IMG/VR virus record: IMGVR_UViG_3300005099_000065
Location: 1-64,000 of that record
Length of the DNA: 64,000 bases
Strand: one strand, 5' to 3'
Source of the DNA: a virus
The position numbers and the translations under genes were made by a program. Numbering within the stretch: position 1 is the stretch's first letter; each line of letters starts with the position of its first letter. The notes beneath the pieces are model-generated. The model worked only from the letters and a program-made list of their open reading frames with translations. It was not told the DNA's origin and searched no databases. This document shows positions 16,058 to 61,350 of this stretch, one piece after another.

Positions 16058-16212
16058 AAATCAAGTCAAATGAAACCACGAGAATGATGTGTTTGGATGG
16101 GAAAGAGGGAGTGGTTGTGCAAATAGAGAAGAACCAAATTTTGGTAGATGTGACAGAGGCTGGACTTTTTTGGTTTTGGCCAGATGAAATAGAAAAGATG
16201 GAAGATGATTAG
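16021..16212 (+). CDS. Small KOW/SH3-like protein
   Basis: FKPGDRIKIK...GKEGVVVQIE; GGAGG RBS. Confidence 0.55.
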   Translation: MVEHGFKPGDRIKIKSNETTRMMCLDGKEGVVVQIEKNQILVDVTEAGLFWFWPDEIEKMEDD

Positions 16213-16219
16213 GAGGTGA

Positions 16220-41786: not shown

Positions 41787-42122
41787 TTATTTTTTCCAAC
41801 CAGCAATAGCTGAATTTCTAAATTGTTTAGCAGCTTCCACCACTTCAGGATGAGGATGTTCAAAACTCACTCCTATGTATTCATCTGACGTCCATTTGAC
41901 CACACCCTTCAACACGTGAACGCTATTCAATATCAAATGAACCTCTATGGAATCTCCTTTTTTGAAATTGTGTCCATCTTTTTCTACCAAACACCCTCGC
42001 TCACTGATGTTCAGCATCCGAGCTGGCTCAGCAGGCAAGGTGGTCTCAAGCAAACCAAAACTTTTTTTGATATAAGCTAAATTCCAAGTAAGGAGACGAG
42101 GGCTTTTCCTCTTTTCCTCCAT
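41787..42122 (-). CDS. Stand-alone PilZ-domain protein
   Basis: KRKSPR (RxxxR) and NISERG (D/NxSxxG) c-di-GMP-binding motifs, GVVKW, IGVSF. Confidence 0.8.
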   Translation of the reverse strand: MEEKRKSPRLLTWNLAYIKKSFGLLETTLPAEPARMLNISERGCLVEKDGHNFKKGDSIEVHLILNSVHVLKGVVKWTSDEYIGVSFEHPHPEVVEAAKQFRNSAIAGWKK

Positions 42123-43381: not shown

Positions 43382-44791
43382 TCATAAGATTTTTGCATCC
43401 TTTTTCTCCTTCAATTGCAAAATTTTCTTTTCAATTTCTTTTTCATTTCCCACTATCACATTCCAACCCAAAGCACGATAGATTTGAAATCTTTGTTGGC
43501 TGTGAGAAGCCAAATAATCATTCCCGTAATCCATACAGTCTATCAACAGTGGATTTGTGTCTTTGGGACGCAAAAGTCTACCAGCCCTTTGCACCACCGA
43601 AATTCGACTTCGACCTCCACCAGCTACCACCAGTACATCCAGCTGAGGAATGTCGATTCCTTCTTTCCACACGGTGGTGGCTATGACTATGGCGGATTGG
43701 TGGTTCAAAGCCTGGCGTAACAGGTGTTGAATTCGGCGAGGAGTTTTGCCTTGTACCAGCCTGGCTCCAGGAACAAGCGAAGCCAAAATTTTACCCTGCT
43801 CCACAGTGTCTACAGATATCAAAATCTTTCGACCTCTCAACAGTTCTACCAAATGAGCTAGCGTTTTATTTCTTTGTTCATTTTCAATTATTCCTTCCCT
43901 GCGTACCCAATACCAACTACCATAGACGGGACAGCGGGTTTTCACCATCAAAACAATGGGCTGAGACAAGTAAGATTGTTGTGTCAATTGTTGCACTTTT
44001 GCTTCATATATAATGGGACCTATGACACCGCAAGCTTTCATGTACTCTTCTGTCGTCCATAATGTGTGAGGAGTGGCTGTGAGACCGATGCGAAATGGGA
44101 TTTCGCTTTTGATTAAAATCCTCCGATAAGTATCAGAATGAGAGTGGTGGGCTTCATCCACCATTATCCCATCGAAATGTTCCCTCAAATTTTTGATTTC
44201 ATTTTCATCCCATCTGGACAAAGTTTGCACAGTGGCAATGGTGACTGTGGCTGGATAATAATCCACCTGTCCTCCACCCCAAATACGAGTGGAAAAGAAT
44301 CGGGAGAAAAACAAATATTGTTGGTGAAGCAATTCTCTGGTATGCACTATGAAAAGACATCTGAAATCCCGAATGCTGGCTATGATTCCAGCTGCTATGA
44401 TAGTTTTGCCTCCACCTGTGGGGATGTGGATGATTCCTCTTTGGTGTTCGAGAGAGTAATGAACTGCTTCATTTTGATATGAACGCAACTGAATACCATC
44501 CAAATTGATTTTTTGCAACTTGTAAGATAATTTCATCTTTCTGATTTTCAAATAAGGATATCTCTTTTCTATCTCTCCCAACAACCCACTCAAGAACCAA
44601 CCTCTTTCACTTATCATACTCACTTTGATTATCTTTTTCCTCCACACTCTCTTTTTCCCCCACCACGCTGGTTCCCATTGCACTTTTTTGTATATGAGTT
44701 CTTTTCTCAACCTTTCAAATTCTGGATGGTTGGGCGAAATCCAAGCCCAGCTAGGAGATCTTTGCACTATGTCAAAGGCTATTTTACGCAT
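43382..44791 (-). CDS. SF2 DEAD/DEAH-like helicase (UvsW-like)
   Basis: PTGGGKT, MVDEAHH, GLTATP, EGIDIP, QRAGRLLR. Confidence 0.9.
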   Translation of the reverse strand: MRKIAFDIVQRSPSWAWISPNHPEFERLRKELIYKKVQWEPAWWGKKRVWRKKIIKVSMISERGWFLSGLLGEIEKRYPYLKIRKMKLSYKLQKINLDGIQLRSYQNEAVHYSLEHQRGIIHIPTGGGKTIIAAGIIASIRDFRCLFIVHTRELLHQQYLFFSRFFSTRIWGGGQVDYYPATVTIATVQTLSRWDENEIKNLREHFDGIMVDEAHHSHSDTYRRILIKSEIPFRIGLTATPHTLWTTEEYMKACGVIGPIIYEAKVQQLTQQSYLSQPIVLMVKTRCPVYGSWYWVRREGIIENEQRNKTLAHLVELLRGRKILISVDTVEQGKILASLVPGARLVQGKTPRRIQHLLRQALNHQSAIVIATTVWKEGIDIPQLDVLVVAGGGRSRISVVQRAGRLLRPKDTNPLLIDCMDYGNDYLASHSQQRFQIYRALGWNVIVGNEKEIEKKILQLKEKKDAKIL

Positions 44792-45818
44792 TGTTTGCCA
44801 TTTGATTTTTGAGCTTGTTCAAATACCATTTCACCGTCACTCTCAATCCCTCTACCAAACTCAATTTCGGTCCCCAGCCAGTTGTTGTTCTGATTTTGAG
44901 ACAACACAATCTGTATTCCCAATCATGACCTGGACGATCTGACACGAATCTTATCAATCTTTCTCTTTCAGCATTTCCCTCAAACTCATCCACCAAATGA
45001 CAAATCAACTTCACCAATTCCAAATTTTGCACACTGAGAGTAAAGGCAGCATTTCCTATGTTATACGTGCCCAAAATACTTTTGCCTTTTTTCCTATACA
45101 ATTTCAACAATCGATGAAGGGCAGCGCAATAGTCGCCGATGTACAACCATGAACGCCTTTGTTCTCCTTTGCCATACACTGGTATGGGGCGTTGCAAATA
45201 AGCATTGAGAATGGTTTTGGGAATCAACTTGGAAAAATCTTGTCGAGGACCGTAAACGTTGGTTGAGTTGAAAATCAACACAGGCAAATCATATGTTCGC
45301 TGATATGCATTTATTAAACACATGGCACCTGCTTTACTAGCACTGTAAGGAGACGAAGGTCGATAAGGGGAATCCTCTTCAGCCCACACCTTGTCTCCAA
45401 ACACCTCGTCAGTACCTGCATAAAAGAACAACTTGCCTTCTCGAGATTTCCAAAATTCACGACAGGCTTCAAGCAAAGTGAGAGTGCCTTCCATATTGAT
45501 TCTGACGCAACGAAACGGATCTTTCAAACTCCTGTCCACGTGAGATTCAGCAGCAAAATGAAACACCATTTCAATAGGATAGAGAGTAAAGATGGTCTTC
45601 ACTTGCTCCCAATCCTCCACTCTTCCCTGAATATGATAATAACGAGTGGGAAATTCTTGGGTCAGTTCTTCATTGTTTCCATAACAAATATCCAACTCCA
45701 TGCTGTCCAAATTCACCACGTTCACATTGCGATATTGCATCAAAAGATTCCAAATCCAATTGCTACCAATAAACCCTGCCCCACCCGTTACCAGAACATA
45801 TTTTTCATTCATTTGCAT
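44784..45818 (-). CDS. rmlB: dTDP-glucose 4,6-dehydratase
   Basis: VTGGAGFIGSN, HFAAESHVDRS, TDEVFG, PSSPYSASK, DRPGHD. Confidence 0.9.
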   Translation of the reverse strand: MQMNEKYVLVTGGAGFIGSNWIWNLLMQYRNVNVVNLDSMELDICYGNNEELTQEFPTRYYHIQGRVEDWEQVKTIFTLYPIEMVFHFAAESHVDRSLKDPFRCVRINMEGTLTLLEACREFWKSREGKLFFYAGTDEVFGDKVWAEEDSPYRPSSPYSASKAGAMCLINAYQRTYDLPVLIFNSTNVYGPRQDFSKLIPKTILNAYLQRPIPVYGKGEQRRSWLYIGDYCAALHRLLKLYRKKGKSILGTYNIGNAAFTLSVQNLELVKLICHLVDEFEGNAERERLIRFVSDRPGHDWEYRLCCLKIRTTTGWGPKLSLVEGLRVTVKWYLNKLKNQMANNA

Positions 45819-45904: not shown

Positions 45905-47149
45905 ATGAAGATATATTTCAAAAATTCCAACGGGATTCTTTATCAAGGTCATGTGTTAGATGTTTTGAAGCAACTGCCTGACGAGTGTGTGGATTGCGTG
46001 ATAACTTCGCCCCCATATTGGTGTTTGAGACGATATCCTAATGCAGACACGATATGGGATGGAAAATCTGATTGCAAACACGAGTGGGAAGGAGAGTTTT
46101 GCAAAAAATGCGGGGCTTGGAAAGGACAGCTAGGGCTTGAACCAACTTTAGGTTTGTATCTTATCCATCTAGTTCAAATAATGAAAGAGCTGAAGAGAGT
46201 CTTGAAAAAAACAGGAGTCATATTTTGGAATCATGGAGATAACTATTCCAACAGTACTGTTCGCTGCGGTGCACCAGAGAAATGTATGTGCCTTCAAAAT
46301 TTTCGTTTCATCACCCATTGCATTGATGAATTGGGATTGATTTTAAGGAACATCATCATTTGGTGCAAACCAAATGCCATGCCCTGTAGTGTCACGGACA
46401 GACTTGCCCTCATGTACGAGCCCATATTCGTGTTGGTTAAAGACCGAGCATATTGGTTTGATTTAGACGCAGTGAGAGTACCTTATGCACCGAGTGGGAT
46501 ACAAAGGAGAAAATATCCTTTGTCAAAGTTTGGCGGAGATCCTCAAAATCCCACAGGCAGATTTGGCAAAGGAGTCAAAAAAGGAAGTGAAGCAGTGCTT
46601 TTGCCTGAAATACCAAATCCATTGGGTAAAAATCCTGGCGATGTCTGGATAATTGCAACACAACCATTTCCAGAAGCCCACTTCGCTACATTTCCTCCTC
46701 AATTAATAGAACCATTGGTAGAATTGGGTTGTCCTCGTTGGATATGCAAAAAATGCAAACAACCTCGCTCCAGAATAGTGAAAACATACTATGAACCAGG
46801 CAAACGTTATTCAAATGAAAAGACTTTGACCGAAGAGGCTAAAAAGCAAGGTCAAAATCCAGGTCCTCAAGGAATGAAATATGGCAGAGCAAATGCCATA
46901 CGCTACACCGTTGGTTGGACAAAGTGCGGATGCGATGCTGGATGGGAATCAGGTGTGGTATTAGATCCTTTCATGGGCAGTGGTACTGTGGCTGTGGTTG
47001 CTACTCGGCTTTTGCGTCGCTGGATTGGAATAGAAATCAGTGAAGAATATTGTCAGATGACCGTGAATAGATTAAAACAACAAGTAAGTCCTTTGTTGAC
47101 GTTTTTGGCTGGATGGTCAACCTCTCACGATGAACCTGCAATCATTTGA
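45905..47149 (+). CDS. N4-C/N6-A DNA methyltransferase (beta class) with a Zn-finger-like insertion
   Basis: ITSPPY, HFATFP, DPFMGSGT; insert CPRWICKKC...CGC. Confidence 0.9.
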   Translation: MKIYFKNSNGILYQGHVLDVLKQLPDECVDCVITSPPYWCLRRYPNADTIWDGKSDCKHEWEGEFCKKCGAWKGQLGLEPTLGLYLIHLVQIMKELKRVLKKTGVIFWNHGDNYSNSTVRCGAPEKCMCLQNFRFITHCIDELGLILRNIIIWCKPNAMPCSVTDRLALMYEPIFVLVKDRAYWFDLDAVRVPYAPSGIQRRKYPLSKFGGDPQNPTGRFGKGVKKGSEAVLLPEIPNPLGKNPGDVWIIATQPFPEAHFATFPPQLIEPLVELGCPRWICKKCKQPRSRIVKTYYEPGKRYSNEKTLTEEAKKQGQNPGPQGMKYGRANAIRYTVGWTKCGCDAGWESGVVLDPFMGSGTVAVVATRLLRRWIGIEISEEYCQMTVNRLKQQVSPLLTFLAGWSTSHDEPAII

Positions 47150-49919: not shown

Positions 49920-49953
49920 AAAATTTTCAATGTTTGTCAAAAACCAGTATAAT
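49920..49953 (+). promoter_or_regulatory. Promoter AAAATTTTCAAT-16-TATAAT upstream of the helicase
   Basis: Third copy of the promoter motif; GGAGG RBS follows. Confidence 0.55.
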
Positions 49954-49972
49954 ATTTACAGGAGGAAAAAAG

Positions 49973-51463
49973 ATGGTGAAGGATTTGGAAGAAGAAAAGT
50001 TCGTGTTTCATTGTTGTTTACAGGGAAACAGATATTTTTTGTCTAATGTGTTGAAGTTTTTGAAACCTTATCATTTTCAGAGCCAATATCGTCGCAAAGT
50101 GTACCAAAGTTTGGAATCTTTTTTTAATCAATTCGAGAGACCTCCAGCTTTGTGGGAATTGAAAGATTATTGTTTGAGAACGATTAGGGATGAACAAATG
50201 AGGGAAGGGGTGGAGAACATTTTGAAGGATATTCCCGAAATCCAAATAAATGAAGATAATATGGACTATATGGTAGATAAGGTTTTGAAGTTTGTTAAGA
50301 AAAGTGTTTTGGTGGATTTGGTGGATGAAGTGATATCGAATTTGAGTAAGGGGAATGTTGAACAGGCAGAGGCATTGGTGAAATCTTTCAAAGGCGTTTC
50401 TGTCGATGATTCGGCTCATTTTTTTGGTTTTCAAGACATGATTGTGGATGCTTATTTGCAACAAGAAGAGGATTTCACGCTTGAATTTAGCGGATTGTTG
50501 GGGGAATTGATAGGTCCTTTGCGTCCAGGTTGGTTGGTTGGAGTATTGGCGCCGAGTAAAAGGGGTAAGACTTGGTTTTTGATTCATACGGCTTTGGATG
50601 CTATGTTTTCGAGGCTGAAAGTGTATTTTGTTTCATTGGAAATGCCTCGTGTACAGTTGAGTCGAAGGTTCATTCGAGCACTTAGCAAGAGGGAGGACGA
50701 TGAAGAGTGGAAGCTAGTAGCTGATTGTGTGTTGAACCAGGAAGGAACATGTAGCAGACCAGAAAGAAAAAATCGAATACCATTGAAGATTAATGGAGAT
50801 TTTCCTCAGAGATATGAAGACACACCAGAAGGTTATCAGCCTTGCACTGCTTGTCGAGATAAAAAAGACTCTCATTTTCGTTTGAGTGGGTGGAGGGTGA
50901 AGAATTCTCAAAGAAATGTGAAGCCGAAAGCGGATGAGAATTATTACACTCAGTTTGAATGGACTAATAAATTATATGGCCATTTTCTATACGCCAGTAG
51001 TTACCCTGCTTATTCTGTTAGAATTCAAGACATATTGATGGATTTGAATGTTTTGGAATCTAGTAAAAATTTCATACCTAAGGTTGTGGTGATCGATTAT
51101 GCTGATTTGTTGGCATCTTTGCATTCTTATGATGAATATCGTCATCAGTTGGACGAAATTTGGAAAGGTTTGAAAGGATTGGCTATGGAAAAAAATTGTA
51201 TAGTCATGACGGCTTCTCAAGCTACTCGTGCGTCTATGAGTAAACATCTTTTGGATACGACTGATGTGGCTGAGGATATTCGCAAGTTGGCTCATTGTGA
51301 TTTGATGATAGGTTTGAACCAAACTGATCGAGAAAGGAAAACTTCGATTTTGAGAATCAATGTGATTGCGAAAAGGGAGGGATTTTTCGATCCTAAAAGA
51401 CAATTGAAATGTTTGGCTGATTTTGAACATGGAAGGCTAAGGATTGATGAAAGTTGGAAATAA
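49973..51463 (+). CDS. dnaB: Replicative DnaB-like helicase
   Basis: APSKRGKT, FVSLEM, VVIDYADLL, TASQ; Cys-containing insertion. Confidence 0.85.
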   Translation: MVKDLEEEKFVFHCCLQGNRYFLSNVLKFLKPYHFQSQYRRKVYQSLESFFNQFERPPALWELKDYCLRTIRDEQMREGVENILKDIPEIQINEDNMDYMVDKVLKFVKKSVLVDLVDEVISNLSKGNVEQAEALVKSFKGVSVDDSAHFFGFQDMIVDAYLQQEEDFTLEFSGLLGELIGPLRPGWLVGVLAPSKRGKTWFLIHTALDAMFSRLKVYFVSLEMPRVQLSRRFIRALSKREDDEEWKLVADCVLNQEGTCSRPERKNRIPLKINGDFPQRYEDTPEGYQPCTACRDKKDSHFRLSGWRVKNSQRNVKPKADENYYTQFEWTNKLYGHFLYASSYPAYSVRIQDILMDLNVLESSKNFIPKVVVIDYADLLASLHSYDEYRHQLDEIWKGLKGLAMEKNCIVMTASQATRASMSKHLLDTTDVAEDIRKLAHCDLMIGLNQTDRERKTSILRINVIAKREGFFDPKRQLKCLADFEHGRLRIDESWK

Positions 51464-51481: not shown

Positions 51482-52129
51482 ATGTTAATACCCAAAACAA
51501 AACAAGAGAAAAAACAGTTCATTTTGGCGATGCAAAAACTCAATGAGTTTTTGACAGCCAAAGGGGAAGGGGAGATTCCTAAAGCAGACATAGAGACTAA
51601 CGTGTATGATTTTGTGGATGCTATTGAGACAATGGATGAAAAATGGTTGGATGAGCTTCCCGATGAAGTGATAAATATGTACAACCATTTGGTGTCTGAC
51701 GAGTTGGCTGAAAGTGAACAGGAGAAAGTTGAAGAGAAAGAGGTTGAACAGCCAGAGCAAATTGAAGAAGCAAAGGAGGAGGAAGCGCAAGAGGCTGAAG
51801 CTGAAACTGAAACTGAGGCTGAAGCTGAAACTGAAACTGAGGCTGAAGCCGAGGAGACGAAGTTCGAAGGAAAGCCAGAACCACTTCCTAAAGATGCAAT
51901 AATTAAGAAGAAACCAACTCCACCTAAGAAACGTTCAAAATTCGAAACAATGGTGAGGGCTTTGCAAGCCAAATCACCTTGCACTATGGATGAATGGTTG
52001 GAAGAGGCTGAACGTATGTGGGGTAGGACAACCACGGATATGAAGTGGTACTTAAATGGTGTGGCTATTGTTTTGAAGTGTGTGGGTGTGTTAGAGGAAA
52101 AGGACGGTAAGCTTGTTTTGAAAAGATGA
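51482..52129 (+). CDS. Acidic protein with an EAEAETET repeat linker and a basic/HTH-like C-terminus
   Basis: Translation; 24-bp tandem repeat at 51791-51849. Confidence 0.7.
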   Translation: MLIPKTKQEKKQFILAMQKLNEFLTAKGEGEIPKADIETNVYDFVDAIETMDEKWLDELPDEVINMYNHLVSDELAESEQEKVEEKEVEQPEQIEEAKEEEAQEAEAETETEAEAETETEAEAEETKFEGKPEPLPKDAIIKKKPTPPKKRSKFETMVRALQAKSPCTMDEWLEEAERMWGRTTTDMKWYLNGVAIVLKCVGVLEEKDGKLVLKR

Positions 52130-53175
52130 AGGAGTTTAAAAATCCCATAAGCGTTAGAGGAGACTATTTGTATTGTCCTTTGCCTTTGGATTTGGACACA
52201 TATTGGAATTGTACCACCGATTGCGTGCATTGTTATCTCAGAAGGCTGAATTACGTGTGGGGCAAGGAGCAAAGAGCGTTAGACCCCATTAAGCTGGAAG
52301 CAAAATTGAAGACAGCTAGCCAATCCAAAGCCAGAAATGATTTGGCTGTAATGTTGAGACTAAAGAAAACTATCAGATGGGGAAACAAATCAGATCCTTT
52401 TCAAATTTGTGAATACAGATATGGCATTTCTGTTCAAGTGTTTCGGATTTTGAAGAGGTTGGACTGGAGTTTTGCTCTTTATACCAAGAATGTGGAATTG
52501 ATGCAAAAGATGTTAGGAGACGAGCTTTGGGATGAATGGTGTTTGAAAAATGTGAGTATGTTAATCAGTGTGATGGTGGGTCAGGAATATGATTGGGTGA
52601 AATTGGAAAATGAGAGATGTTCGTCTTTTGCAAACAGATTGCATTTTTTAGCCAGATGGTTGGATAAAGGAGGGATGGGGGCTTTGATTTGCGAGCCCTT
52701 CATTCCTGGATATCATTCCATATCACAATGGGAATCATTGTTGAAGCGAGCTAAGACATTAGGCATCAACAGAGTGAACATTTATAATTTTCATTTCAAT
52801 GCATTTGTGGCCAGGCGTTTGCACAAGCGAGGAATCGATATCAGAAGGATTTGGTATTACAACCAGGATCAACAATGGAGACCCATTTTGAAAGTGCTGT
52901 TGCGAAAGGCTAAGGATATGGGTATGATTGTGGGCTGTCCTGACTTCGTGAACAGTGGTGATTTTGTAGATGAATGTAATACGTGTTGCGGAGTGGATGT
53001 GCCTAATCCTTGTCGTTTTAACACCCATCATTGGAAACCAATGTGGTTGTTGGGTTATGAAGCAGATGATATAATCGAGCGGACATATGAGGGTTATGGG
53101 GATGTGAAAAAGGCTAGGCGGATTTTGCAAGGACGAAGTAAAGAATTTTACACTATGAAGGATATTGTGAAATGA
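52126..53175 (+). CDS. Radical SAM enzyme 1 (spore-photoproduct-lyase-like)
   Basis: PLDLDTYWNCTTDCVHCY (CxxxCxxC), WGNKSDPFQ, EPFIPG. Confidence 0.85.
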   Translation: MKEFKNPISVRGDYLYCPLPLDLDTYWNCTTDCVHCYLRRLNYVWGKEQRALDPIKLEAKLKTASQSKARNDLAVMLRLKKTIRWGNKSDPFQICEYRYGISVQVFRILKRLDWSFALYTKNVELMQKMLGDELWDEWCLKNVSMLISVMVGQEYDWVKLENERCSSFANRLHFLARWLDKGGMGALICEPFIPGYHSISQWESLLKRAKTLGINRVNIYNFHFNAFVARRLHKRGIDIRRIWYYNQDQQWRPILKVLLRKAKDMGMIVGCPDFVNSGDFVDECNTCCGVDVPNPCRFNTHHWKPMWLLGYEADDIIERTYEGYGDVKKARRILQGRSKEFYTMKDIVK

Positions 53176-53939
53176 AACTGTATTATTATTTTCATTTTGG
53201 GGATTGTGTTTTGAAAGTGCCTCATAATGTCTCTCGGTTTTCTCAAACCAGGGTGCGGAAAAACACACCTCATTCTCAATTCATCTTTGATCATCGAGAG
53301 GATTTGATTTGTGAATTGAATTGTGTGAAGGATTTGGCTCAAAGCTTTTCTTTCACATCTTATTTGGAGATGATGGCTGGTTTGGGTTTCAGTGCCAAAC
53401 TGGTAAGCAGTATTCAAGATTTGAATGAAATTTGGTTGAATGACAAGGATGAGTTTTGTACTACCAGCTTGGCTATCAATTTTGCAAATGAAGTGGGAAA
53501 GGAAATCATGATTACCCAGAGTGATGTTTTGGATTTGAAAGTGGTTGGTCGTTGGGATGTGATTTTTATCGATTTCAACACTTTTTCTATGAAGAGATGG
53601 AATGAGTGGTTGAGATTGTGGGGTAATGTGAAAGGAAAGTTTCGTAATTTATGGTTAACGGACACTGCTTGTTATGTGTGGACAAAATTTGGAGCTCAAA
53701 CATTTGAGAAATGTTTTGGTTTCAAATCTTTGGAACAATATTGCCAGTCTTTTTCAAATTTGATAAAATCTACTTTAGGAGCATCGCTAAGAAGAGCAAG
53801 AATAGGAGCAAATGGCAAATGTGCCATTTTGGATTTCGAATATGGTTATGAGGGTGATTGGGATTTGAGAAAAGTGGACAAAAGTTTGAGTTTGAAAATA
53901 GAAGTGAAGTGGGGTTTGAGGAATGATTGTGAGAAATGA
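53172..53939 (+). CDS. SAM-methyltransferase-fold protein lacking the DPPY motif
   Basis: YLEMMAGLG (motif I-like), WLNDKD, SDVL, DVIFIDFNTF. Confidence 0.5.
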   Translation: MKLYYYFHFGDCVLKVPHNVSRFSQTRVRKNTPHSQFIFDHREDLICELNCVKDLAQSFSFTSYLEMMAGLGFSAKLVSSIQDLNEIWLNDKDEFCTTSLAINFANEVGKEIMITQSDVLDLKVVGRWDVIFIDFNTFSMKRWNEWLRLWGNVKGKFRNLWLTDTACYVWTKFGAQTFEKCFGFKSLEQYCQSFSNLIKSTLGASLRRARIGANGKCAILDFEYGYEGDWDLRKVDKSLSLKIEVKWGLRNDCEK

Positions 53940-54720
53940 TACGCCGATTGAAAAAGTGACTTCGTCTATTTTTGTGAAACGTGAAGACTTGGCTACATTG
54001 TCTCCAGGTCCTCCTTTCAGTAAGACACGGGGTTTGTTTCAGCATTTGTTTTTGCTTTTTCGTTTAGGAATCAGATGTGTGGGTTATGTGGAAACAGCTA
54101 TTTCAATGGCAGGATGGGCTGTGGCTTGGTTAGGAAAAAAGATGAATATGAAAGTCATCATTTTCGATCCTCAGTACAAAGATGATTCTAAATTTCCTTT
54201 GCCTTTGCATCGCCAAAAGTGGAAACAGTTTGGGGCACAGCTGGTGAAGGTGAGAGCAGGTAAAGCCAGTGTGAATTGGTACATTGCCAGACGCTGGATG
54301 AAGGAGAATGTTCATCAGCCATGGAAATTGTTGCCTTTGGGATTACCTTTGAATGAGACTGTGTTGGAAACCTTTGCGCAAGCGAGAAAGTGTATCAGAG
54401 ATTTCCCTACCATAGTGGTTCCAGTTGGTAGTGGTACTATTGCTTGCGGGATAGCCAGAGCTTTGTATCGGAACCAAAAACTGATTGGCATTATGAGTCG
54501 CACTGGAGATGTGCGCAGAAAATTTAAGTTTGTGGTTAAGTGGTGTGAATATCCAACTCATGTGGACATAGTGGACCCAGGATATCCTTACACCAAAAAG
54601 GTGGACATCAAAACTCCATTTCCTTGCAATCCTTATTATGATACCAAAGCTTGGCAGTGGGTGTTGGAACATGAAGATGAGTTGGAGAAGCCTATTTTGT
54701 TTTGGAACATAGGGGCATGA
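53923..54720 (+). CDS. PLP-dependent enzyme (fold type II)
   Basis: FVKREDL...SKTRG (Schiff-base Lys), IVVPVGSGTIACGI, YYDTKAW, LFWNIG. Confidence 0.85.
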   Translation: MIVRNDTPIEKVTSSIFVKREDLATLSPGPPFSKTRGLFQHLFLLFRLGIRCVGYVETAISMAGWAVAWLGKKMNMKVIIFDPQYKDDSKFPLPLHRQKWKQFGAQLVKVRAGKASVNWYIARRWMKENVHQPWKLLPLGLPLNETVLETFAQARKCIRDFPTIVVPVGSGTIACGIARALYRNQKLIGIMSRTGDVRRKFKFVVKWCEYPTHVDIVDPGYPYTKKVDIKTPFPCNPYYDTKAWQWVLEHEDELEKPILFWNIGA

Positions 54721-54721
54721 A

Positions 54722-56119
54722 ATGGAATATGAAGATTTGAAGCGCAAGTTGCAAAGGATTGTGCCTCGCCATGGGGTTTTTGCTTTGCCTAAAATGCCAA
54801 GGTTGAGTCACAAGGGGAGGAAAAAGAATTATCGTCAATATCATTTGGTAGAGAACAAATTGATAGAGCCTAGACGAAATTTGCATGAGGAGGAAATCAA
54901 ATCATTTGCTGAAGTGAGTCTCAGAGCACAAGCATGCCCTATGCCTTTGAATTTGGACACATATGATGGTTTGATTTGTCCTTTTGGATGTCGTTATTGC
55001 TATGCAAATTGGTTTCGCTTGAGTTTGTACACTTCGTTTTTCGACAATCCTGACCAAATAGGGATTCGAAGTTGCAACCCCGATTTCTTCAAGCGTCAGT
55101 TAGATAGATATATGAGTTACAGGGGTAAGGTTGAGAAGGCTGGTAATGAAGTGGCTCGGGCTTTCGCTTTGGAGATTCCTGTGAGGTTTGGAATCAGATT
55201 TGAAGACTTTTTGCCTTGTGAAGAAAAGAGGAAGGTGTCTTATGAGCTTTTGAGGTACCTGAAAGAGGTGAGTTATCCCGTGATGATAAACACCAAATCA
55301 ACTTTGGTGGGAAGGGATGAGTATGTGAAGGTGTTGTCTGAAAATAAAGCTAAGGCAGCTGTTCATATGACTTTGATTACAGCTGATGAAAGGTTGCGTA
55401 AGAAATTGGAACCAGGTGCTCCATCGTTTAAACGCAGAATAGAGGCTTGTGCTTCTTTGGCTTCGGCTGGTGTTCGAGTGGTGGCCAGAATAGAACCATT
55501 TATGCCTTTTTTGAATGATACGATGTTGGACGAGTATGCTCAGGCTTTGAAGGAAGCGGGAGTGTCTAACATCACATTCGACACGTACAGTTATAGTGCT
55601 AGAGGATTTGTGGTGAGAGGGGCTTTTCAGATGGTGGGTTTGGATTTTGACAGGATGTTTTATGCTGTGTCCGATTCTCAACCATTGGGTTCATTGGCTT
55701 TGGCTTTGTTTATGAATGAATTCAGAAAGAGAGGTTTCAGTTGTTCCACGTTTGATTTTGGAAATGTCCCATACAACGATCAAGACATTTGTTGTGAAGT
55801 GGGAGATTGGTTCGAAGGTGGATGGAATTATGGATGTGGAGTGATGGCTATTCGTTATATCAAATCCCAGTCACCCAAACCCGTCAGATGGTCTCAATTT
55901 GAAAACTGGGTGGAAGGCAAAGGAGGCTTTTTGTCTCCTGCTTTGAAAAAAGAAGTACATCAAATTTGGAATGGGGAGGGGGATGGCCAATTTTATCTGA
56001 GCTGGGCTGACGGTTTGAAGTGTTGTGGTTGGGATGAGGATGGTAGGGTTTGGCGCTGGGATCCAGATGAAAATTATCGTCAAAAGATGTTTCAAGTATT
56101 GTTGGAGGGATTGAAATGA
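54722..56119 (+). CDS. Radical SAM enzyme 2 (paralogue of enzyme 1)
   Basis: PMPLNLDTYDGLICPFGCRYCY, INTKS, RIEPFMP, CCEVG. Confidence 0.85.
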   Translation: MEYEDLKRKLQRIVPRHGVFALPKMPRLSHKGRKKNYRQYHLVENKLIEPRRNLHEEEIKSFAEVSLRAQACPMPLNLDTYDGLICPFGCRYCYANWFRLSLYTSFFDNPDQIGIRSCNPDFFKRQLDRYMSYRGKVEKAGNEVARAFALEIPVRFGIRFEDFLPCEEKRKVSYELLRYLKEVSYPVMINTKSTLVGRDEYVKVLSENKAKAAVHMTLITADERLRKKLEPGAPSFKRRIEACASLASAGVRVVARIEPFMPFLNDTMLDEYAQALKEAGVSNITFDTYSYSARGFVVRGAFQMVGLDFDRMFYAVSDSQPLGSLALALFMNEFRKRGFSCSTFDFGNVPYNDQDICCEVGDWFEGGWNYGCGVMAIRYIKSQSPKPVRWSQFENWVEGKGGFLSPALKKEVHQIWNGEGDGQFYLSWADGLKCCGWDEDGRVWRWDPDENYRQKMFQVLLEGLK

Positions 56120-56952
56120 TTTCATCTTCTCAATTGGAAAAAATATTTGCTCACGCAGCAGCTTTGCATTCAGAGGGAAAAATGAAAAATTGGATTTACG
56201 GGGAAGGCACTAAGATTTACATTTTGAACACAGATTGTTCTTTGTTGGTGAGGTTTAAAGTGCCTTGGGAGCTGGGTCATTTTTGCTTTTCAGCTCACGA
56301 ATATGAAGGTCAAGAATTTCATCTTTCTCCAACTGGCATGATATTCAAGTCACAAGATCAAGATTACGAGAGAACAAAATTTAGCCCCGTCAATCCACCG
56401 TATTCTTTTGAATGGATAAAGCGCACGTGGAGTGTTTTGGATCAAAAGACAAAGGAGTGCAAACCAGTTGGAAAAATAGTTTTGGAAGACAAGGTTTTGA
56501 GATGGTTGGAAAAGGATCTTCCCCATACAGAATTTGTGTTGAAGGAGAAGGGATGGTCTTTGGTTCAACGCAACATATATACGGGAGAAATCATTCAGAT
56601 TACCAAAAAACCTCGCCCTTTGACTTTGTTGGATAAGGATGAGGTGATGGGTGAAAGGAGTATAGGTTTGAGGACAAATGACTTTTTTGCTCTTTTCACA
56701 TTTGTGTCCAAGCTCAGCTTTTATTTTTATGATTTACCTTTTGCACAAGCTATGAATTTGAGCTTTTTTGATATGAGAGTGTTTTTGGGAGGATGTTTTT
56801 ATGATTCATTAGGAGATTTGGAGGTGATTTATGGGAGGGAAATCCAGAAAGTCAGGCATGGTGAGCCGTCAGCTGATAGAAAAAATATTGAGAGAAGGAA
56901 AGAGCTCATCCAAAAAATCAAGGCAAGGCGGCGGCTCATCAACAAAGGTTAA
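56116..56952 (+). CDS. Hypothetical protein in the modification cluster
   Basis: Coupled ORF; no motif recognised with confidence. Confidence 0.65.
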   Translation: MISSSQLEKIFAHAAALHSEGKMKNWIYGEGTKIYILNTDCSLLVRFKVPWELGHFCFSAHEYEGQEFHLSPTGMIFKSQDQDYERTKFSPVNPPYSFEWIKRTWSVLDQKTKECKPVGKIVLEDKVLRWLEKDLPHTEFVLKEKGWSLVQRNIYTGEIIQITKKPRPLTLLDKDEVMGERSIGLRTNDFFALFTFVSKLSFYFYDLPFAQAMNLSFFDMRVFLGGCFYDSLGDLEVIYGREIQKVRHGEPSADRKNIERRKELIQKIKARRRLINKG

Positions 56953-56973
56953 GTTGCCTTTGGGAGTCAAGAG

Positions 56974-57759
56974 ATGAGTTATTTGGAATGCTTGGAACGG
57001 TGGAGAATTGAGCCCAATTTTTGGATGAGCGATGAGTATTTTGAGAAGGCTGGATTTAGAGAAGAAAGGAAAGGGAATGTTTGGTATGTGAGAGATGATG
57101 AAGGAAAATTGATGTTTCCTCCTGTGCATGAAAGTGTGGGTTTGATTGCTGGTTGCGAGGATATTTGGGCTGATGTGGATGGTTTTCAAGGAGAAGGTCA
57201 AAAGGAATTTTTGGACTGGGAGTACATTTATGACCCTAGAGACTTTTTGCGTTTGGAAGGGGGCAAGTGGAGGACATTTCGTAAAAACGTGCGCAGATAT
57301 GCTCGCATTCATTCGGCTAATTTGTTATATGAAAATTGGAATTCGGCTTCATCCAAATTGACTGATTTGTCTGAACAGGTGGAAGACATTGTGGTGCAAT
57401 GGCTTCAAAAAGACGAATCACGTTACATATGGGATGCTGAGGTTATGTTGGTTTATGTTCGGGAAGGTCAAAATCGTGAAGTTTTGTGGGATGTGAAGAG
57501 TAAAAAGGTTTTGGGGATAAACATTTGGGATGAAAACTATTGGTATGTGAATTTTCGTTATTGTTTTTGTCGTGATGAGAAGTATTTGAGTGAGTATTTG
57601 AGATGGTGTTTTTATTTGGCTCGATGTTTTAGTGGTAATCCAAAGCTGGTGAATGACGGAGGGACATTGGGTTCTCAAGGTTTGGAGCGTTTTAAGGACA
57701 AATTGAATCCAATCAAGAAAAGGAGGGTATATTCATGGAGGGTAAGCGAGTCAAAATAA
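56974..57759 (+). CDS. DUF2156 / MprF C-terminal-like GNAT-fold aminoacyl-tRNA-dependent transferase (soluble)
   Basis: EYIYDPRDFLRLEGGKWRTFRKNVRRY and LVNDGGTLGSQGLERFKDKLNP match the family patterns DY.Y...L..L.G.K...KRNH...F and IN...DLG..GLR..K..Y.P. Confidence 0.65.
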   Translation: MSYLECLERWRIEPNFWMSDEYFEKAGFREERKGNVWYVRDDEGKLMFPPVHESVGLIAGCEDIWADVDGFQGEGQKEFLDWEYIYDPRDFLRLEGGKWRTFRKNVRRYARIHSANLLYENWNSASSKLTDLSEQVEDIVVQWLQKDESRYIWDAEVMLVYVREGQNREVLWDVKSKKVLGINIWDENYWYVNFRYCFCRDEKYLSEYLRWCFYLARCFSGNPKLVNDGGTLGSQGLERFKDKLNPIKKRRVYSWRVSESK

Positions 57760-58838
57760 CGAGACGTCCTAAACCTTACCCAGCTTTGAAGGCTGGTCAG
57801 ATGGCTTCGCTTTTGAAGCCAGTGATGGCTAGTTTGAGAGAGGGAGAAGGAGAAGGAGTGTTGTTTCAGAACAATTGGATGGTGGGTGTGGGAGAGTATT
57901 TGATGGTTTGGTCGCCATTGCCCACTGGAGTGGCTGGTTGTGTGAATGGTAAATTGTTATTCGAGTTTGTGCATCGTTTGCCTCCCGAAGAGGCTTTGCA
58001 ATGTCGTGTTGAGGATGTGCATTTGATTTTGGAGAGCAAGGATAAGCCCAGAAAGTTGAAAATGAATTTGATTAGTGAAGTTTGGGAACCATGGGCAACA
58101 CCACCAAAGTTGGAAGAGTTTTTACCCCTGGAAGAAAGCTTCTTCAAGGATTTGGAATTGGCGCTGGGTGGATTGGAAGTGAAATCCTTGATAGGTCCTT
58201 TGGCTGGTGTATGGATTGGAGAAAATAAAGTTTTGGCCACTGACGAATGTAGGGCAAATATGTTGCAACGTCAGGGAGGGATTTATGCAATAAAACCTGG
58301 TCTGCTTTTTTCGGCTAGAGCTTTGGATTGTTTGTTAGATTTGAAATTGGCTTGTAACGGATGGTTATTGGATAAGGACAGAAGGTGGGTTTGGTTTTCT
58401 ACATTGGAAGGGATTTTGTGCGCTGTGAGGTTGATGCAAAGCGAAGAATATCCCACACAGGCTTTGGTCGAGTTGTTTTCTCGCTCTCGCCATTATGTTT
58501 CTTTCCCTGTGTCGGAGTTTGGCGAAGCTGTGGATTTGGCTCATGTGGTTGCTAAACATTCAGGAACCAAGAATCTCATTGTTTCTCTGATTTGGAAGGG
58601 AAACACTTTGACAATTGTGGGGAGAGGCGAATTCGGTTCATTTGAACAATCGATGAATTGGAAAAAGGATTCTAGCTTACCTGATGAAGGTGGTTTTGAT
58701 GTGAATCCTGTGTTGTTGAAAAACATGATAGAAGGTTCAGTAGAAGCAAAATTTGGTTTGACTGAAACTTTGGTGTTTGTTGAGGGCGAGGATTTTCAAT
58801 ATTTAGCACCTTTGATTTGGAAAAGCAATGAAGCTTAA
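57735..58838 (+). CDS. dnaN: DNA polymerase III beta-type sliding clamp
   Basis: 367 aa; LATDECR and VNPVLL..MI segments; position next to Pol and clamp loader. Confidence 0.6.
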   Translation: MEGKRVKITRRPKPYPALKAGQMASLLKPVMASLREGEGEGVLFQNNWMVGVGEYLMVWSPLPTGVAGCVNGKLLFEFVHRLPPEEALQCRVEDVHLILESKDKPRKLKMNLISEVWEPWATPPKLEEFLPLEESFFKDLELALGGLEVKSLIGPLAGVWIGENKVLATDECRANMLQRQGGIYAIKPGLLFSARALDCLLDLKLACNGWLLDKDRRWVWFSTLEGILCAVRLMQSEEYPTQALVELFSRSRHYVSFPVSEFGEAVDLAHVVAKHSGTKNLIVSLIWKGNTLTIVGRGEFGSFEQSMNWKKDSSLPDEGGFDVNPVLLKNMIEGSVEAKFGLTETLVFVEGEDFQYLAPLIWKSNEA

Positions 58839-61350
58839 ATTGTTCGAGGGCGAACCAGATTGCATGAAGTGTGGATTGTATCGAGGGATTAAGTCTCCAC
58901 GTATGTCTTACACTGGTAAGGGTGAGAAAGGAGTGTTGATAGTGGCGGAAGCGCCAGGTAAGACAGAAGATGAGCAAGGGGTGCAGTTGGTGGGGCGAGC
59001 TGGTCAATATTTTCGTTCTGTTTTGAAAAGTTATGGTTGGGATTTGGACAGGGATTGCTGGAAAATCAATGCTGTGAACTGTTATTGTTCTCACAAACCA
59101 ACCAGAACGCAAATTTCGTGTTGTCGACCAATGGTTGAAAGAGCTATTAAGGAATGTCGTCCACGTTACATTTGGTTGTTGGGGGAATGTGCCATAGCTA
59201 GCTTTTTTTCATGTTATTTCGGTGATTGTTCTCCCACTTTGTGGAGAAAGTTTTGCATTCCTGACAGACGTTACAAATGTTGGGTAATTCCTTTGTTTCA
59301 TCCCAGCTTTGTGATTCGGAATGAGAAGGATAAAGGGTTGAGTATGACGTTTGAGAGAGATGTGGGTTGGGCTATTCGTCAAAGTGAAAAGGAGCGAACA
59401 TGGATTGATTTCTCTCCCGAATCTCAAATAAACATATTGTTGAGTGAGGCTGATGTGATATTGAAGTTGAAGGATTTGAAACAAAGTGATTTGATAGCCT
59501 TCGATTACGAAACCACAGGACTGAAACCATTTGCACAAGGTCATCGGATTATTAGTGTGGCAGTGAGTAATGGAAAAGAAACTTTTGTTTTTCCTTTTCA
59601 GCATCGGGCTTCTCCATGGCTGAATGACGAATCGATAAAGCATGAATGGACGAACATTTTGCTCGAGTCCAAAATCAAAAAAATAGCTCACAATGTTTCA
59701 TTCGAGGATTTATGGAGTCGTGTGATATTGAATTTAGATGAGGTGAAGGGATGGTTTTGGGACACGAAGTTGGTGGCTCATCTTTTGGACAATCGCAAGG
59801 ATTTGACTCATTTGAAGTTTTTGGCTTTCGTTAATTGGGGTTTGGTTTGGACAGAGAAAGTGAAACCTTATTTGGGTGGCGCTTCATCTAACGAATTCAA
59901 TAAGTTGGAAAAAGTGAATTTGAAGGATTTGTGTCTTTACAATGGGATTGATGCTTTGATGACTTGGAAAATTTTTGAAAAGCAATTTGACGAGCTGAAG
60001 CATCGTCCCAAGTTGAAATCGGCTTTTGATTTGTTTTTCAAGGGTCAGTTGGTCTTGTCCAAGTGTACTAGCAGAGGGTTGAAGGTGGATTTGCAATATT
60101 ATGAGAAGCAATGCAAGAGAGCTCAACGCAACATAGACAGATTGGTTCACGAGCTTCTTCACGACGAGAGCGCTAAGAGGTTTGAGCAAAAGTACAAGAA
60201 ACAAATAGATTTGAGATCAGCTTTGGATTTGAGAAGGTTGTTTTTTTACGTGAAAAAATATCAACCTTTCAAAGTCACATCCAAGACCAATCCCAGCGTT
60301 GATCAAGAGTCACTGGAATATTTTCAAGAGGAATACCAAGACACTTTTGCCGAAAAGCTTTTGGTTTTGAGAAAATGGGAGAAAATCAATTCCACATATT
60401 TGTCGGGGATTATGAAAGAAGCAGTGAATGGCAAAGTACATCCCTTCTTTTCATTGGCCACATCTCGTTCATATCGTTCATCTTCTCATTCTCCCAATTT
60501 TCAAAACATTCCTGTGAGAGATGAGTTAGCTAAAAAAATTGTCAGAAGGGGAATCATAGCCCACAAAGGTTGGCAATTGATGGAGGTGGATTACAGCGGA
60601 ATTGAGGTGAGAATTGGAGCTTGTTACCACAAAGACAAAAATATGATCGAATACATTTGTAATCCAGATTCAGATATGCATAGAGATTGCGCAGCAGACA
60701 TTTGGTTGTTGGACAAAAATGATGTGACAAAGGAGCTTAGGTTTTATGCAAAAAACCAATGGGTGTTTCCTCAGTTTTATGGTGATTGGTATGGGAGATG
60801 CGCTGAGAAATTGTGGAGAGTTTGTCGACATTTGAAATTGAAAAATGGAATGAAAGTGGAGGATTGGATAAAGACCAAAGGCATAACTTGTTTTGATGAT
60901 TTTGTTCAGCATTGCAAACAAATGGAAGACAAGTTTTGGAACCAGCGCTTTCGGGGATATCAACAATGGAAGGAGGAGATGTGGGAATTTTATTTGAGAA
61001 AAGGTTATGTGGAGACATTTTTCGGTTTTCGTTTCACGGGCTATATGGATTTTAAGAGAGTGAACAATTATCCAATTCAAGCCACTGCTTTTCATTGTTT
61101 GTTGTGGAGTTTGATTCAGATAGAGAGTGAGTTGAAATCCAATGGAATGAGAACCAAAATTTTAGGTGAAATTCATGACAGCATTATATTTGAGGTTTGG
61201 CCACCAGAGAGAGAACAAGTGATACAATTGGTGAGGGAGGTGATGACCCAAAGGATTAGGAAACAACACGATTGGATTATTGTGCCTTTGGACATAGATA
61301 TAGAAATTGCACCAGTTGGAGGAAGTTGGGATGAAAAACAATCAATTTAA
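58828..61350 (+). CDS. polA: Family A DNA polymerase with N-terminal family-4 uracil-DNA-glycosylase domain and 3'-5' exonuclease
   Basis: UDG: CMKCGL, VAEAPG..ED, FHPS. Exonuclease: DYETTG, AHNVSFE, YNGID. Polymerase: PNFQNIP, DYSGIEVRI, AKNQWVFPQFYG, NYPIQATA, IHDS. Confidence 0.92.
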   Translation: MKLKLFEGEPDCMKCGLYRGIKSPRMSYTGKGEKGVLIVAEAPGKTEDEQGVQLVGRAGQYFRSVLKSYGWDLDRDCWKINAVNCYCSHKPTRTQISCCRPMVERAIKECRPRYIWLLGECAIASFFSCYFGDCSPTLWRKFCIPDRRYKCWVIPLFHPSFVIRNEKDKGLSMTFERDVGWAIRQSEKERTWIDFSPESQINILLSEADVILKLKDLKQSDLIAFDYETTGLKPFAQGHRIISVAVSNGKETFVFPFQHRASPWLNDESIKHEWTNILLESKIKKIAHNVSFEDLWSRVILNLDEVKGWFWDTKLVAHLLDNRKDLTHLKFLAFVNWGLVWTEKVKPYLGGASSNEFNKLEKVNLKDLCLYNGIDALMTWKIFEKQFDELKHRPKLKSAFDLFFKGQLVLSKCTSRGLKVDLQYYEKQCKRAQRNIDRLVHELLHDESAKRFEQKYKKQIDLRSALDLRRLFFYVKKYQPFKVTSKTNPSVDQESLEYFQEEYQDTFAEKLLVLRKWEKINSTYLSGIMKEAVNGKVHPFFSLATSRSYRSSSHSPNFQNIPVRDELAKKIVRRGIIAHKGWQLMEVDYSGIEVRIGACYHKDKNMIEYICNPDSDMHRDCAADIWLLDKNDVTKELRFYAKNQWVFPQFYGDWYGRCAEKLWRVCRHLKLKNGMKVEDWIKTKGITCFDDFVQHCKQMEDKFWNQRFRGYQQWKEEMWEFYLRKGYVETFFGFRFTGYMDFKRVNNYPIQATAFHCLLWSLIQIESELKSNGMRTKILGEIHDSIIFEVWPPEREQVIQLVREVMTQRIRKQHDWIIVPLDIDIEIAPVGGSWDEKQSI

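Follow-up and report, generated by a model that had tools for sequence, protein, structure and literature searches.

We identified, in the genome of an uncultured phage, a block of seven plus-strand genes within the replication genes that probably performs post-replicative hypermodification of DNA bases, of the anti-restriction type, through an undescribed entry step that needs no kinase. The module joins an invariant core to exchangeable, putative finishing enzymes, two of which are homologous to enzymes proven to act on glycinyl-thymidine. Since these proven finishing enzymes are kept without the entry enzymes, the module should reveal a new attachment of an amino acid to DNA, possibly through a radical reaction directly at an ordinary base, which would also help to label DNA. 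The module is both widespread and modular, and several new bases are therefore predicted.

Gene block and invariant core

The window, a stretch of 64,000 nucleotides, belongs to a circular genome of 80 kb that is apparently complete (CheckV 100%) and whose terminal overlap of 103 nt carries 5 mismatches. In an ORF survey of the window, the block is bounded by DnaB (49934-51463) and an acidic gene on one side, and by a beta-clamp-like gene, a PolA polymerase bearing a UDG domain, and DnaX on the other, in agreement with the placement given in an earlier sequence-only reading of this DNA. That reading described six tightly packed genes, and their coordinates and strand hold; the ORFs follow one another with a 4-nt overlap, a 17-nt overlap, a 1-nt gap and then a 4-nt overlap, and the 21-nt gap 5' of ORF 56974-57759 is occupied by a seventh ORF (56831-56977), for a 48-aa peptide that had been missed. 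The features are given below, with counts that refer to a survey set of 52 distinct complete phage blocks, from loci seeded on block genes, at most 80 per scan, with rSAM2 as the seed of the locus search.

51482-52129, + strand: acidic backbone gene, a flank between DnaB and the module, outside the latter
52126-53175, + strand: rSAM1, SPL/PA0069-like radical SAM paralogue (NCBIfam rSAM_PA0069, E 1e-7)
53172-53939, + strand: class I SAM-methyltransferase-like protein (ESM Atlas features 0.93-0.97 to methyltransferase clusters)
53923-54720, + strand: PLP enzyme of PALP fold, M6 gp52 homologue (35% identity, 282 columns, E 4e-53)
54722-56119, + strand: rSAM2, SPL/PA0069-like radical SAM enzyme (Pfam Radical_SAM, E 3e-11; rSAM_PA0069, E 5e-21)
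56116-56952, + strand: PCNA-like second sliding clamp (predicted two-domain PCNA/gp45/9-1-1 fold, residues 1-230; core, 52/52)
56831-56977, + strand: basic peptide, 48 aa (GGAGGT RBS; core, 52/52)
56974-57759, + strand: soluble DUF2156 protein, MprF-C/FemX-like double GNAT (Pfam PF09924, E 8.5e-6; core, 52/52)
57735-58838, + strand: beta-clamp-like processivity factor, 367 aa, backbone flank (PHROG 947, E 0.002)

The acidic gene has a counterpart in 48 of the 52 blocks, and sisters without the block, such as L219 and L256, also have ORFs that resemble it, as judged by eye; the beta-clamp-like gene is kept in sister phages without the module.

All 52 blocks contain rSAM2, the PCNA-like clamp, the peptide and the DUF2156 gene in one and the same order, and so the arrangement is not due to chance. 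The fixed six-gene unit envisaged earlier is ruled out, as the PLP enzyme (30/52 blocks) and the methyltransferase (16/52) are accessory, and what the gene-neighbourhood search upholds is a four-gene invariant core. Exchanged repeatedly among blocks are the PLP enzyme, the methyltransferase, an aldo-keto reductase, DUF362 and a PaMx11 gp47-like FAD enzyme, with 15 changes for PLP, 6 for the reductase and 5 for DUF362 on the rSAM2 tree. The usual tailoring cassette is headed by rSAM1 (46/52 blocks), the remaining 6 having a divergent paralogue and DUF362 instead, and other cassettes in relatives combine the FAD enzyme with the aldo-keto reductase, the methyltransferase with the aldo-keto reductase, or a divergent rSAM with DUF362. 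The PaMx11 gp47 homologue (27%, E 4e-22) is found at the matching cassette position in 5 loci and never together with the PLP enzyme, an exclusion that, by analogy, mirrors the M6/PaMx11 swap (PMC8989533). Distinct rSAM2 clusters number at least 97, and no cultured phage was found to encode a close relative of rSAM1, of rSAM2, of the methyltransferase or of DUF2156. One 90%-identity cluster in the locus set is chain-linked, and the Fisher tests carry no phylogenetic correction.

Among 45 complete slots seeded on DnaB, counted without dereplication, the core is complete in 5 and entirely absent in 39, and 1 has DUF2156 alone; locus L253 has a DUF2156 gene with neither rSAMs nor peptide. The clamp fold co-segregates with the module enzymes, and its absence from 40 of these 45 non-dereplicated slots rules out the second clamp as an essential part of the replisome. 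In eleven sisters the slot is filled by FolE/QueD/QueE-like/QueC genes (7-deazaguanine), DNA methylase genes also alternate there, and some sister phages leave it empty. In others, an rSAM of the same subfamily adjoins TET-associated glycosyltransferases (TAGT); TET was not detected near these genes in a search of fragment contigs run without a positive control, and for the clamp-like ORFs close by neither a clamp nor kinship to ORF 56116-56952 was confirmed.

Palindromic 6-mers containing A/T stand at 0.72 in block phages and 0.67 in other sisters (p 0.31), so that avoidance is not relieved. The deazaguanine control gave the expected result, with 0.89 for GC-only 6-mers where the block phages have 0.46 (p 0.002). 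In palindrome usage the block phages resemble unmodified sisters, which fits a modification of T or of A but equally no modification at all.

Predicted functions and missing entry enzymes

Both radical SAM proteins recognised earlier have an intact CxxxCxxC motif, which is present in 45/46 rSAM1 and 51/52 rSAM2 sequences of the block alignments, together with an extra conserved set of cysteines (N-terminal CP plus C-x15-CC). By hhalign they match each other (98.2%) and M6 gp53 (rSAM1 96.6%, rSAM2 89.8%), but with an identity of only about 20-24% they are probably not gp53 orthologues; rSAM2 relatives are ~50% identical to one another. The PA0069/Rv2578c profile scores (75 and 31 bits) lie far under the curated cut-off of 360, and the SPL profile scores 14 bits for a cut-off of 27. 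We consider rSAM2 a candidate for the entry enzyme of the module.

ORF 56116-56952 had been counted among the enzymes, where it does not belong. Sequence searches and Atlas gave no match for it, and Foldseek of its AlphaFold model (pLDDT 81) retrieved PCNAs at E 1e-8; the structure match (VIA) has Z 14.6, rmsd 4.2 and 203 aligned, with 9-1-1 subunits tying as top match and the next unrelated fold at Z about 5. The predicted fold is that of a PCNA-like clamp and therefore not of an enzyme, which also rules out a hidden transferase in this ORF.

The peptide follows a plan of a GGKSRKxGxxSxxL head, an amphipathic-looking segment, a variable linker and a C-terminal hydrophobic LF-type motif, and stand-alone peptides form 303 clusters at 50% identity. 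Its GGKSRKxG head is invariant across all 149 top matches, and the tail motif, a pattern chosen post hoc, is present in 129/149 against 33 ± 5 in shuffled sequences. About 7/149 peptides have N-terminal extensions, which weakens the idea of a strict free-N-terminal-Gly carrier.

The DUF2156-like identity assigned earlier to ORF 56974-57759 is borne out by its fold. PF09924 scored 25.5 bits, slightly below the cut-off of 27.5, and the model (pLDDT 96) matches 2HQY with Z 21.7 (rmsd 2.8, 245 aligned), MprF with Z about 16 (16.2 to MprF-C) and FemX with Z 12-13; DUF2156 proteins rank first, and Mom is absent among the structural matches listed. In the inter-domain helix (97-116), R103, K104 and N105 are found in 128/128 DUF2156 sequences and R107/K108 in nearly all, and F240-K241 is conserved in relatives; a positively charged inter-domain helix is required for tRNA use by DUF2156 transferases (PMC8913301). 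The model points to an aminoacyl-tRNA transferase-like protein. Acceptors of this fold, among the structural matches and the cited literature, are lipids, sterols, peptides and small molecules, with no DNA. Phage tRNA-Gly is not a general pointer to the amino acid, given that no tRNA genes were found in this genome and that 60 loci hold just 6, of five kinds.

The PLP enzyme has the PALP fold and is homologous over its full length to M6 gp52, whose activity as an amino-acid:DNA decarboxylase is proven (PMC8989533), in line with its earlier assignment. Its K34 aligns with the gp52 Schiff-base lysine K36, the Lys motif is kept in 81/83 relatives, and all 66 matches in cultured phages are full length, the phages among the matches listed (40 of 66) being M6/YuA-type or similar. 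A gp52-type decarboxylase role is predicted from this homology. The methyltransferase fold is tentatively kept, as a class I methyltransferase-like protein, and is the weakest of the family calls: the alignment has motif-I-like and DF-type motifs, and the best E against PDB profiles is only 0.02. Most relatives of this protein have a C-terminal tail of the type G-[LF]-[LF].

The thymidine hypermodifications of the cited literature begin with 5-hmU, a kinase and an amino-acid or amine:DNA transferase. For the 5-hmU DNA kinase, the circular genome gave no match to profile PF18748, which was positive on M6 and PaMx11 as a control, and zero tblastn matches to M6 gp54/gp55 and PaMx11 gp49. For the amino-acid:DNA transferase (aGPT-Pplase2/ADDT), it gave no match to PF18724 or PF18723, and PF18724, positive on its controls, was also unmatched in 5 long relatives. 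In these searches the absence previously noted in the window extends to the whole genome, which speaks against a kinase or transferase elsewhere in it as an explanation. A thymidylate synthase-fold dUMP hydroxymethylase was found neither in this genome nor in two CheckV-complete relatives, with partial TS-like matches in two incomplete ones, and searches of this genome found no nucleotide kinase, dNTPase or deaminase.

A possible route and its alternatives

The general conception of the sequence-only reading, a DNA-hypermodification module without kinase or ADDT and with a DUF2156-fold transferase, is retained, whereas its six-gene set is not; both non-enzyme parts of the core were missed, and the direct loading onto a base or nucleotide that it proposed is one of the alternatives below. 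For DNA base modification with a kinase-free entry speak the gp52 and gp47 homologues, the kinship of both rSAMs to gp53, the co-segregating clamp, the deazaguanine and TAGT-associated genes of sisters, the undetected entry enzymes, the repeated cassette swaps and the precedent of Mom. Against the proposal stand the low identity to gp53, the non-DNA acceptors of the DUF2156 fold, the unrelieved palindrome avoidance, the lack of a tRNA gene pointing to glycine, the N-terminal extensions of some peptides and the DUF2156 gene of L253. The full route, with a radical on the thymine methyl and glycine from aminoacyl-tRNA, is the likeliest of those considered and has in our view somewhat less than an even chance. 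The PCNA-like clamp, together with the LF-type tails of the peptide and the methyltransferase, would tether the enzymes to freshly replicated duplex DNA. DUF2156 would draw on host aminoacyl-tRNA for an amino acid, which is probably glycine, and attach it to the GGKSRK head of the peptide, which would serve as a tethered carrier. The SPL-like rSAM2 would then take hydrogen from the thymine 5-methyl and join the glycyl unit there, a reaction with no need for oxygen that would stand in for three M6 activities, hmU synthase, kinase and transferase. The adduct would next be rearranged or released by rSAM1 to give an amino acid linked through C-alpha (cf. M6 gp53). The gp52 homologue would decarboxylate this to an aminoethyl-type base, which the methyltransferase may then methylate, and relatives would end the route differently, according to their swapped cassettes. 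The carrier-peptide version, in which DUF2156 charges the invariant head of the clamp-tethered peptide and an SPL-like rSAM functionalises the unactivated thymine methyl of duplex DNA with that amino acid, is rather unlikely; if true, it would provide an oxygen-independent, single-module substitute for the hmU/kinase/transferase and TET routes, and a combinatorial family of undescribed bases in hundreds of uncultured phages.

Still within DNA modification, DUF2156 may act last or directly on DNA, with the peptide as a clamp-enzyme adaptor, which we hold to be possible, if on balance doubtful. If the rSAMs build an aminoalkyl base out of free glycine, DUF2156 could cap the free amine of that base; alternatively, as Mom does, it could acylate an exocyclic amine, on A or on C, and the rSAMs would rearrange the amide. 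There is a precedent in Mom (PMC13219725), DUF2156 is constant with or without the decarboxylase, the peptide tail resembles a clamp-docking motif, and one DUF2156 gene lacks the peptide. However, the best fold match is DUF2156/MprF, and the invariance of GGKSRKxG over 149 clusters, glycines and lysines included, is no less to be expected of a substrate than of a docking site. A base amide, moreover, has no free carboxylate and therefore nothing for a gp52-type decarboxylase, and a carboxyl-linked one would give gp52 a carboxylate only if rearranged.

It is improbable that a protein is the target instead, be it the peptide or some other, in a RiPP-like or histone-tail-like modification that leaves the DNA unmodified; DUF2156 would then aminoacylate the basic peptide, and tailoring by the rSAMs, the PLP enzyme and the methyltransferase would give a nucleoid or regulatory factor. 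An invariant precursor-like peptide does adjoin the transferase, FemX-type folds acylate peptides, and composition shows no sign of restriction protection, but among the finishing enzymes are homologues of gp52 and of gp47, whose action on DNA is proven, the core has a clamp of its own, and in other phages deazaguanine or DNA methylase genes fill the slot. A nucleotide-pool, tRNA or small-molecule pathway, with the base premade or a tRNA or metabolite modified, seems very improbable: gp47-like, methyltransferase and rSAM chemistry parallels the wobble-uridine cmnm5/mnm5 pathways, and the polymerase has a UDG domain, yet the clamp implies a duplex-DNA substrate and the searches of the genome found no nucleotide kinase, dNTPase, deaminase, thymidylate synthase or tRNA genes. 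We would hardly expect an accessory of DNA repair or recombination, in which SPL-like enzymes repair lesions while held by a 9-1-1-like clamp and the other genes are unrelated passengers; it accords with the SPL/PA0069 family resemblance and the tie of 9-1-1 subunits for top structural match, but leaves the obligate DUF2156 and peptide, and the mutually exclusive tailoring cassettes, unexplained.

Comparison with known systems

Our literature search, with subscription journals largely outside it, found no published description of the module. The M6/Yuavirus 5-NedU pathway comprises gp51 AADT, gp52 PLP decarboxylase, gp53 rSAM isomerase and gp54 5-HMUDK, and M6 gp52 and PaMx11 gp47 act on glycinyl-thymidine in DNA (PMC8989533). 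The block resembles M6 in its full-length gp52 homologue with Schiff-base lysine, its SPL-like rSAMs, distant relatives of gp53, and the adjacency of PLP and rSAM genes. In contrast, it has two rSAMs and no detected kinase, AADT or hmU synthase, and it adds the PCNA-like clamp, the peptide and DUF2156. The PaMx11 5-AcNmdU pathway (gp46-gp49) shares with some block relatives a gp47 homologue in the tailoring slot, but gp47 is absent from this genome, and in the relatives the partners of the homologue are an aldo-keto reductase and rSAM1 instead of gp46, gp48 or gp49. With the spore photoproduct lyase and PA0069-Rv2578c families, the phage rSAMs share the partial-barrel rSAM fold with CxxxCxxC and weak profile matches, and they differ in being paired paralogues with an extra Cys set and sub-cut-off scores.

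The DUF2156 protein is akin to the DUF2156 transferases (MprF C-domain, ErdS/ErgS, Bacteroides 2HQY) and FemX/FemAB in its fold, basic inter-domain helix and C-terminal F-K motif, whereas it is soluble, phage-encoded and located in a replisome operon. A tRNA-dependent DNA modification is already known from the phage Mu Mom protein, with its Gly-tRNA-dependent 6-NcmdA (PMC13219725), and the two systems share the GNAT superfamily and, as predicted for the block, charged tRNA and a DNA-modification setting. Mom, however, is a single enzyme with a direct action on adenine, whereas the block combines a double-GNAT DUF2156 protein with an obligate rSAM, clamp and peptide.

Genome setting and anatomy of the block

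The phage contig totals 79,661 bp, of which the window covers bases 1-64000. Its ends share a 103-nt overlap (98 identical) and one reading frame spans the join, so that the genome closes to about 79.56 kb, and CheckV gives a completeness of 100%. The join-spanning frame (window 6-1283 plus contig end 77623-79661) exceeds 1000 aa; its start looks head-protease-like by eye, and it further includes a methyltransferase-like portion and an ATP-dependent ligase domain. The replication arm runs in the order DnaB, acidic gene, block, beta-clamp-like gene, UDG-PolA, DnaX, gp32-like SSB, RecA and SbcCD-like genes. PolA (window 58828-61350) has an N-terminal UDG-superfamily domain, and many relatives carry split UDG-exonuclease and polymerase genes. 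The block comprises:

52126-53175, plus strand, radical SAM enzyme (rSAM1)
53172-53939, plus strand, methyltransferase-like protein
53923-54720, plus strand, PLP enzyme
54722-56119, plus strand, radical SAM enzyme (rSAM2)
56116-56952, plus strand, PCNA-like clamp (predicted fold)
56831-56977, plus strand, peptide
56974-57759, plus strand, DUF2156-like protein

The six ORFs that the sequence-only reading placed at 52126-57759 are all present and tightly coupled, but its count of six genes has to be corrected, as a seventh ORF, 56831-56977, lies among them.

The two radical SAM proteins are paralogous (hhalign 98.2%) and fall in the SPL/PA0069 neighbourhood with scores under the named-family cut-offs. 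Both keep the CxxxCxxC motif, and they have in common an extra N-terminal Cys and a C-x15-CC set, which is possibly a second cluster site. M6 gp53 is a distant relative of both. The PLP enzyme aligns end to end with M6 gp52 (35%, E 4e-53), its K34 falling on the proposed Schiff-base K36 of gp52, which acts on DNA as a decarboxylase of C-alpha-glycinylthymidine but not of its N-alpha isomer (PMC8989533). The earlier assignment of 56974-57759 as DUF2156-like is borne out by a confident model (pLDDT 96) with the DUF2156 fold, matching 2HQY (Z 21.7), MprF/aaPGS (Z 16), and Sbb17 and FemX (Z 12-13). ErgS requires a basic inter-domain helix for tRNA use (PMC8913301), and an alignment of relatives shows the corresponding helix conserved in the block protein. 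The predicted fold of 56116-56952 is a two-domain PCNA/9-1-1/gp45 clamp, and no sequence family was matched; 53172-53939 is assigned as methyltransferase-like on weaker evidence.

The peptide gene overlaps the unconserved, low-confidence tail of the clamp gene, is preceded by the ribosome site GGAGGT, and encodes a 48-aa basic peptide found in the same position in the 15/15 loci first checked. It belongs to a family of stand-alone peptides with about 300 clusters. Among the best 149 short matches, GGKSRKxGxxSxxL is invariant, M or a GTG start immediately precedes GG in 142 (about seven have short extensions), and an LF-type tail motif occurs in 129, against 33 +/- 5 in shuffles, the pattern having been chosen post hoc. 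Similar C-terminal ends are found in 11 of 15 methyltransferases. These tails resemble clamp-docking motifs, of which QL[SD]LF is an example, and would be putative docking sites.

Elsewhere in the window, glycosyltransferases, an epimerase and a methyltransferase are clustered amid virion genes (14167-22354), and together with a dTDP-glucose dehydratase (44784-45818) they probably serve virion glycosylation. Amid the plus-strand tail genes, 31090-32601 encodes a terminase-large-subunit-like protein on the minus strand. A PilZ domain protein is encoded at 41787-42122, a PAPS-reductase-like protein at 40850-41674 and an N4/N6 DNA methyltransferase at 45905-47149. A protein with CxxCH haem-type motifs (G000 70105-71202, equal to L001:10105-11202) possibly points to a host that respires anaerobically.

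Core, cassettes and the same slot in sister phages

Loci of relatives (L-numbers) seeded with rSAM2 form at least 97 clusters at 90% identity, 52 of them with the whole DnaB-to-clamp interval. rSAM2 is followed by clamp, peptide and DUF2156 in all 52, and in 68/68 where downstream DNA suffices. A further rSAM lies upstream of rSAM2 in every whole interval: 46 have rSAM1 and 6 a divergent paralogue. The PLP enzyme is present in 30 of the 52 intervals, the methyltransferase in 16. Additional cassette genes encode an aldo-keto reductase, DUF362, a FAD enzyme, an amidoligase, a weak GNAT and a weak TAGT. Across all loci, the PLP gene occurs in 0/18 reductase, 0/10 DUF362 and 0/5 FAD-enzyme loci, DUF362 and rSAM1 never occur together, and the FAD enzyme is invariably accompanied by reductase and rSAM1. 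The FAD enzyme is homologous to PaMx11 gp47 (27%, E 4e-22), which cleaves N-alpha-glycinylthymidine and stands in for gp52/gp53 in PaMx11 (PMC8989533). Mapped on a quick rSAM2 tree, the cassettes are dispersed: PLP changes 15 times (11 or more of these forced), the reductase 6 times and DUF362 5 times, so that they represent repeated swaps around a fixed core. Some blocks have a third rSAM paralogue 3' of DUF2156 (L018:11033-12493, L012:9519-11033, L025, L026); L018 retains the block and has a DnaE-UDG polymerase in place of PolA. rSAM2 is split or interrupted by an inserted element, which may be an intron, intein or homing endonuclease, in L003, L011, L084, L094 and L095.

Among the DnaB-seeded loci listed, 45 have a complete slot between DnaB and the beta-clamp-like gene: five hold the whole core, 39 no core gene and one DUF2156 alone. 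Clamp and peptide thus move with the enzymes and not with the replisome. The exception, L253:11631-13029, has DUF2156 without rSAMs, PCNA-like clamp match or peptide, adjoining a 206-aa ORF.

In 11 sisters (L190, L197, L204, L224, L235, L239, L241, L243, L245, L250, L255) the slot carries FolE, QueD, QueE-like and QueC genes (Pfam matches: 11 FolE, 10 QueD, 6 QueC), which together supply precursors of the 7-deazaguanine bases in phage DNA (10.1101/2023.04.13.536721). QueC is frequent in these slots, QueF occurs once, and a DSGA-motif protein is DpdA-like by eye. Further genes in these slots are of the rSAM, SDR, nitrilase or glycosyltransferase-like kinds, and new deazaguanine derivatives are possible. 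In further sisters the slot contains DNA methylases, or thymidylate synthase and a possible kinase. L213, L217 and L218 carry an rSAM of the rSAM2 subfamily (L217: 98.5%, same Cys pattern), adjoined in L213 and L217 by TET-associated glycosyltransferases; TET was not seen in these three module fragments. A possible clamp-like ORF and a second rSAM (SPASM in L213) are also in the slot (L213:8523-13562, L217:7875-13389, L218). These fragmentary contigs hint that the subfamily may activate a pyrimidine methyl instead of an oxygenase doing so, and the module is a candidate oxygen-independent glycosylated-pyrimidine pathway.

Entry step and proposed route

Profile searches with ADDT (amino-acid:DNA transferase), HMUDK_hel and HMUDK (5-hmU DNA kinase) and thymidylate synthase models gave no match in this genome, nor did ADDT and HMUDK models in five long relatives, the M6 and PaMx11 controls being positive for these two models. 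By tblastn, M6 gp51, gp54, gp55 and gp58 have no match, whereas gp52 and gp53 do. Pfam scans of the genome's other genes revealed no nucleotide-pool enzymes.

We consider it quite probable that DNA is the target of the module. Palindrome avoidance in block phages resembles that in unmodified sisters, so composition lends no independent support for modification; in a deazaguanine-phage control, avoidance of GC-only 6-mers is lost. The strong whole-genome avoidance of CGCG, CCGG, GGCC and GATC (observed/expected 0.07, 0.16, 0.24 and 0.44) suggests host restriction pressure at sites unprotected by the module. The tRNA genes of this genome and of the relatives' loci do not indicate the amino acid. 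One block-bearing phage has tRNA-Gly(CCC) directly 3' of the beta-clamp gene (L080:14682-14757), and other loci have tRNAs for Leu, Ile, Gln or Arg, or none.

DUF2156 might act late or directly on DNA, which we regard as less likely than not and as slightly less probable than the carrier route below. A gp52-type enzyme requires a DNA-bound amino acid with amine and carboxylate free, and direct acylation of a base amine, as carried out by Mom using Gly-tRNA (PMC13219725), would not yield this without rearrangement. The simplest route employing all four obligate parts, which we infer at every step and put forward tentatively, is one with the peptide as carrier. DUF2156 would transfer glycine from tRNA to the head of the peptide, the clamp would keep the complex on DNA, and rSAM2 would generate a thymine-methyl radical, to be coupled to the glycyl unit. 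rSAM1 could then rearrange or release the adduct, and the PLP enzyme and methyltransferase would complete it to an aminoethyl-type base.

Relation to the M6 and PaMx11 pathways

The literature searched contained no description of this module. Its finishing end would work as in the M6 and PaMx11 pathways, but three features that define those pathways were not found in this genome, and the module is thus not a member of them. We conclude that the block is real and widespread, and most probably an undescribed variant of phage DNA hypermodification, differing from M6 and PaMx11 in its entry step.
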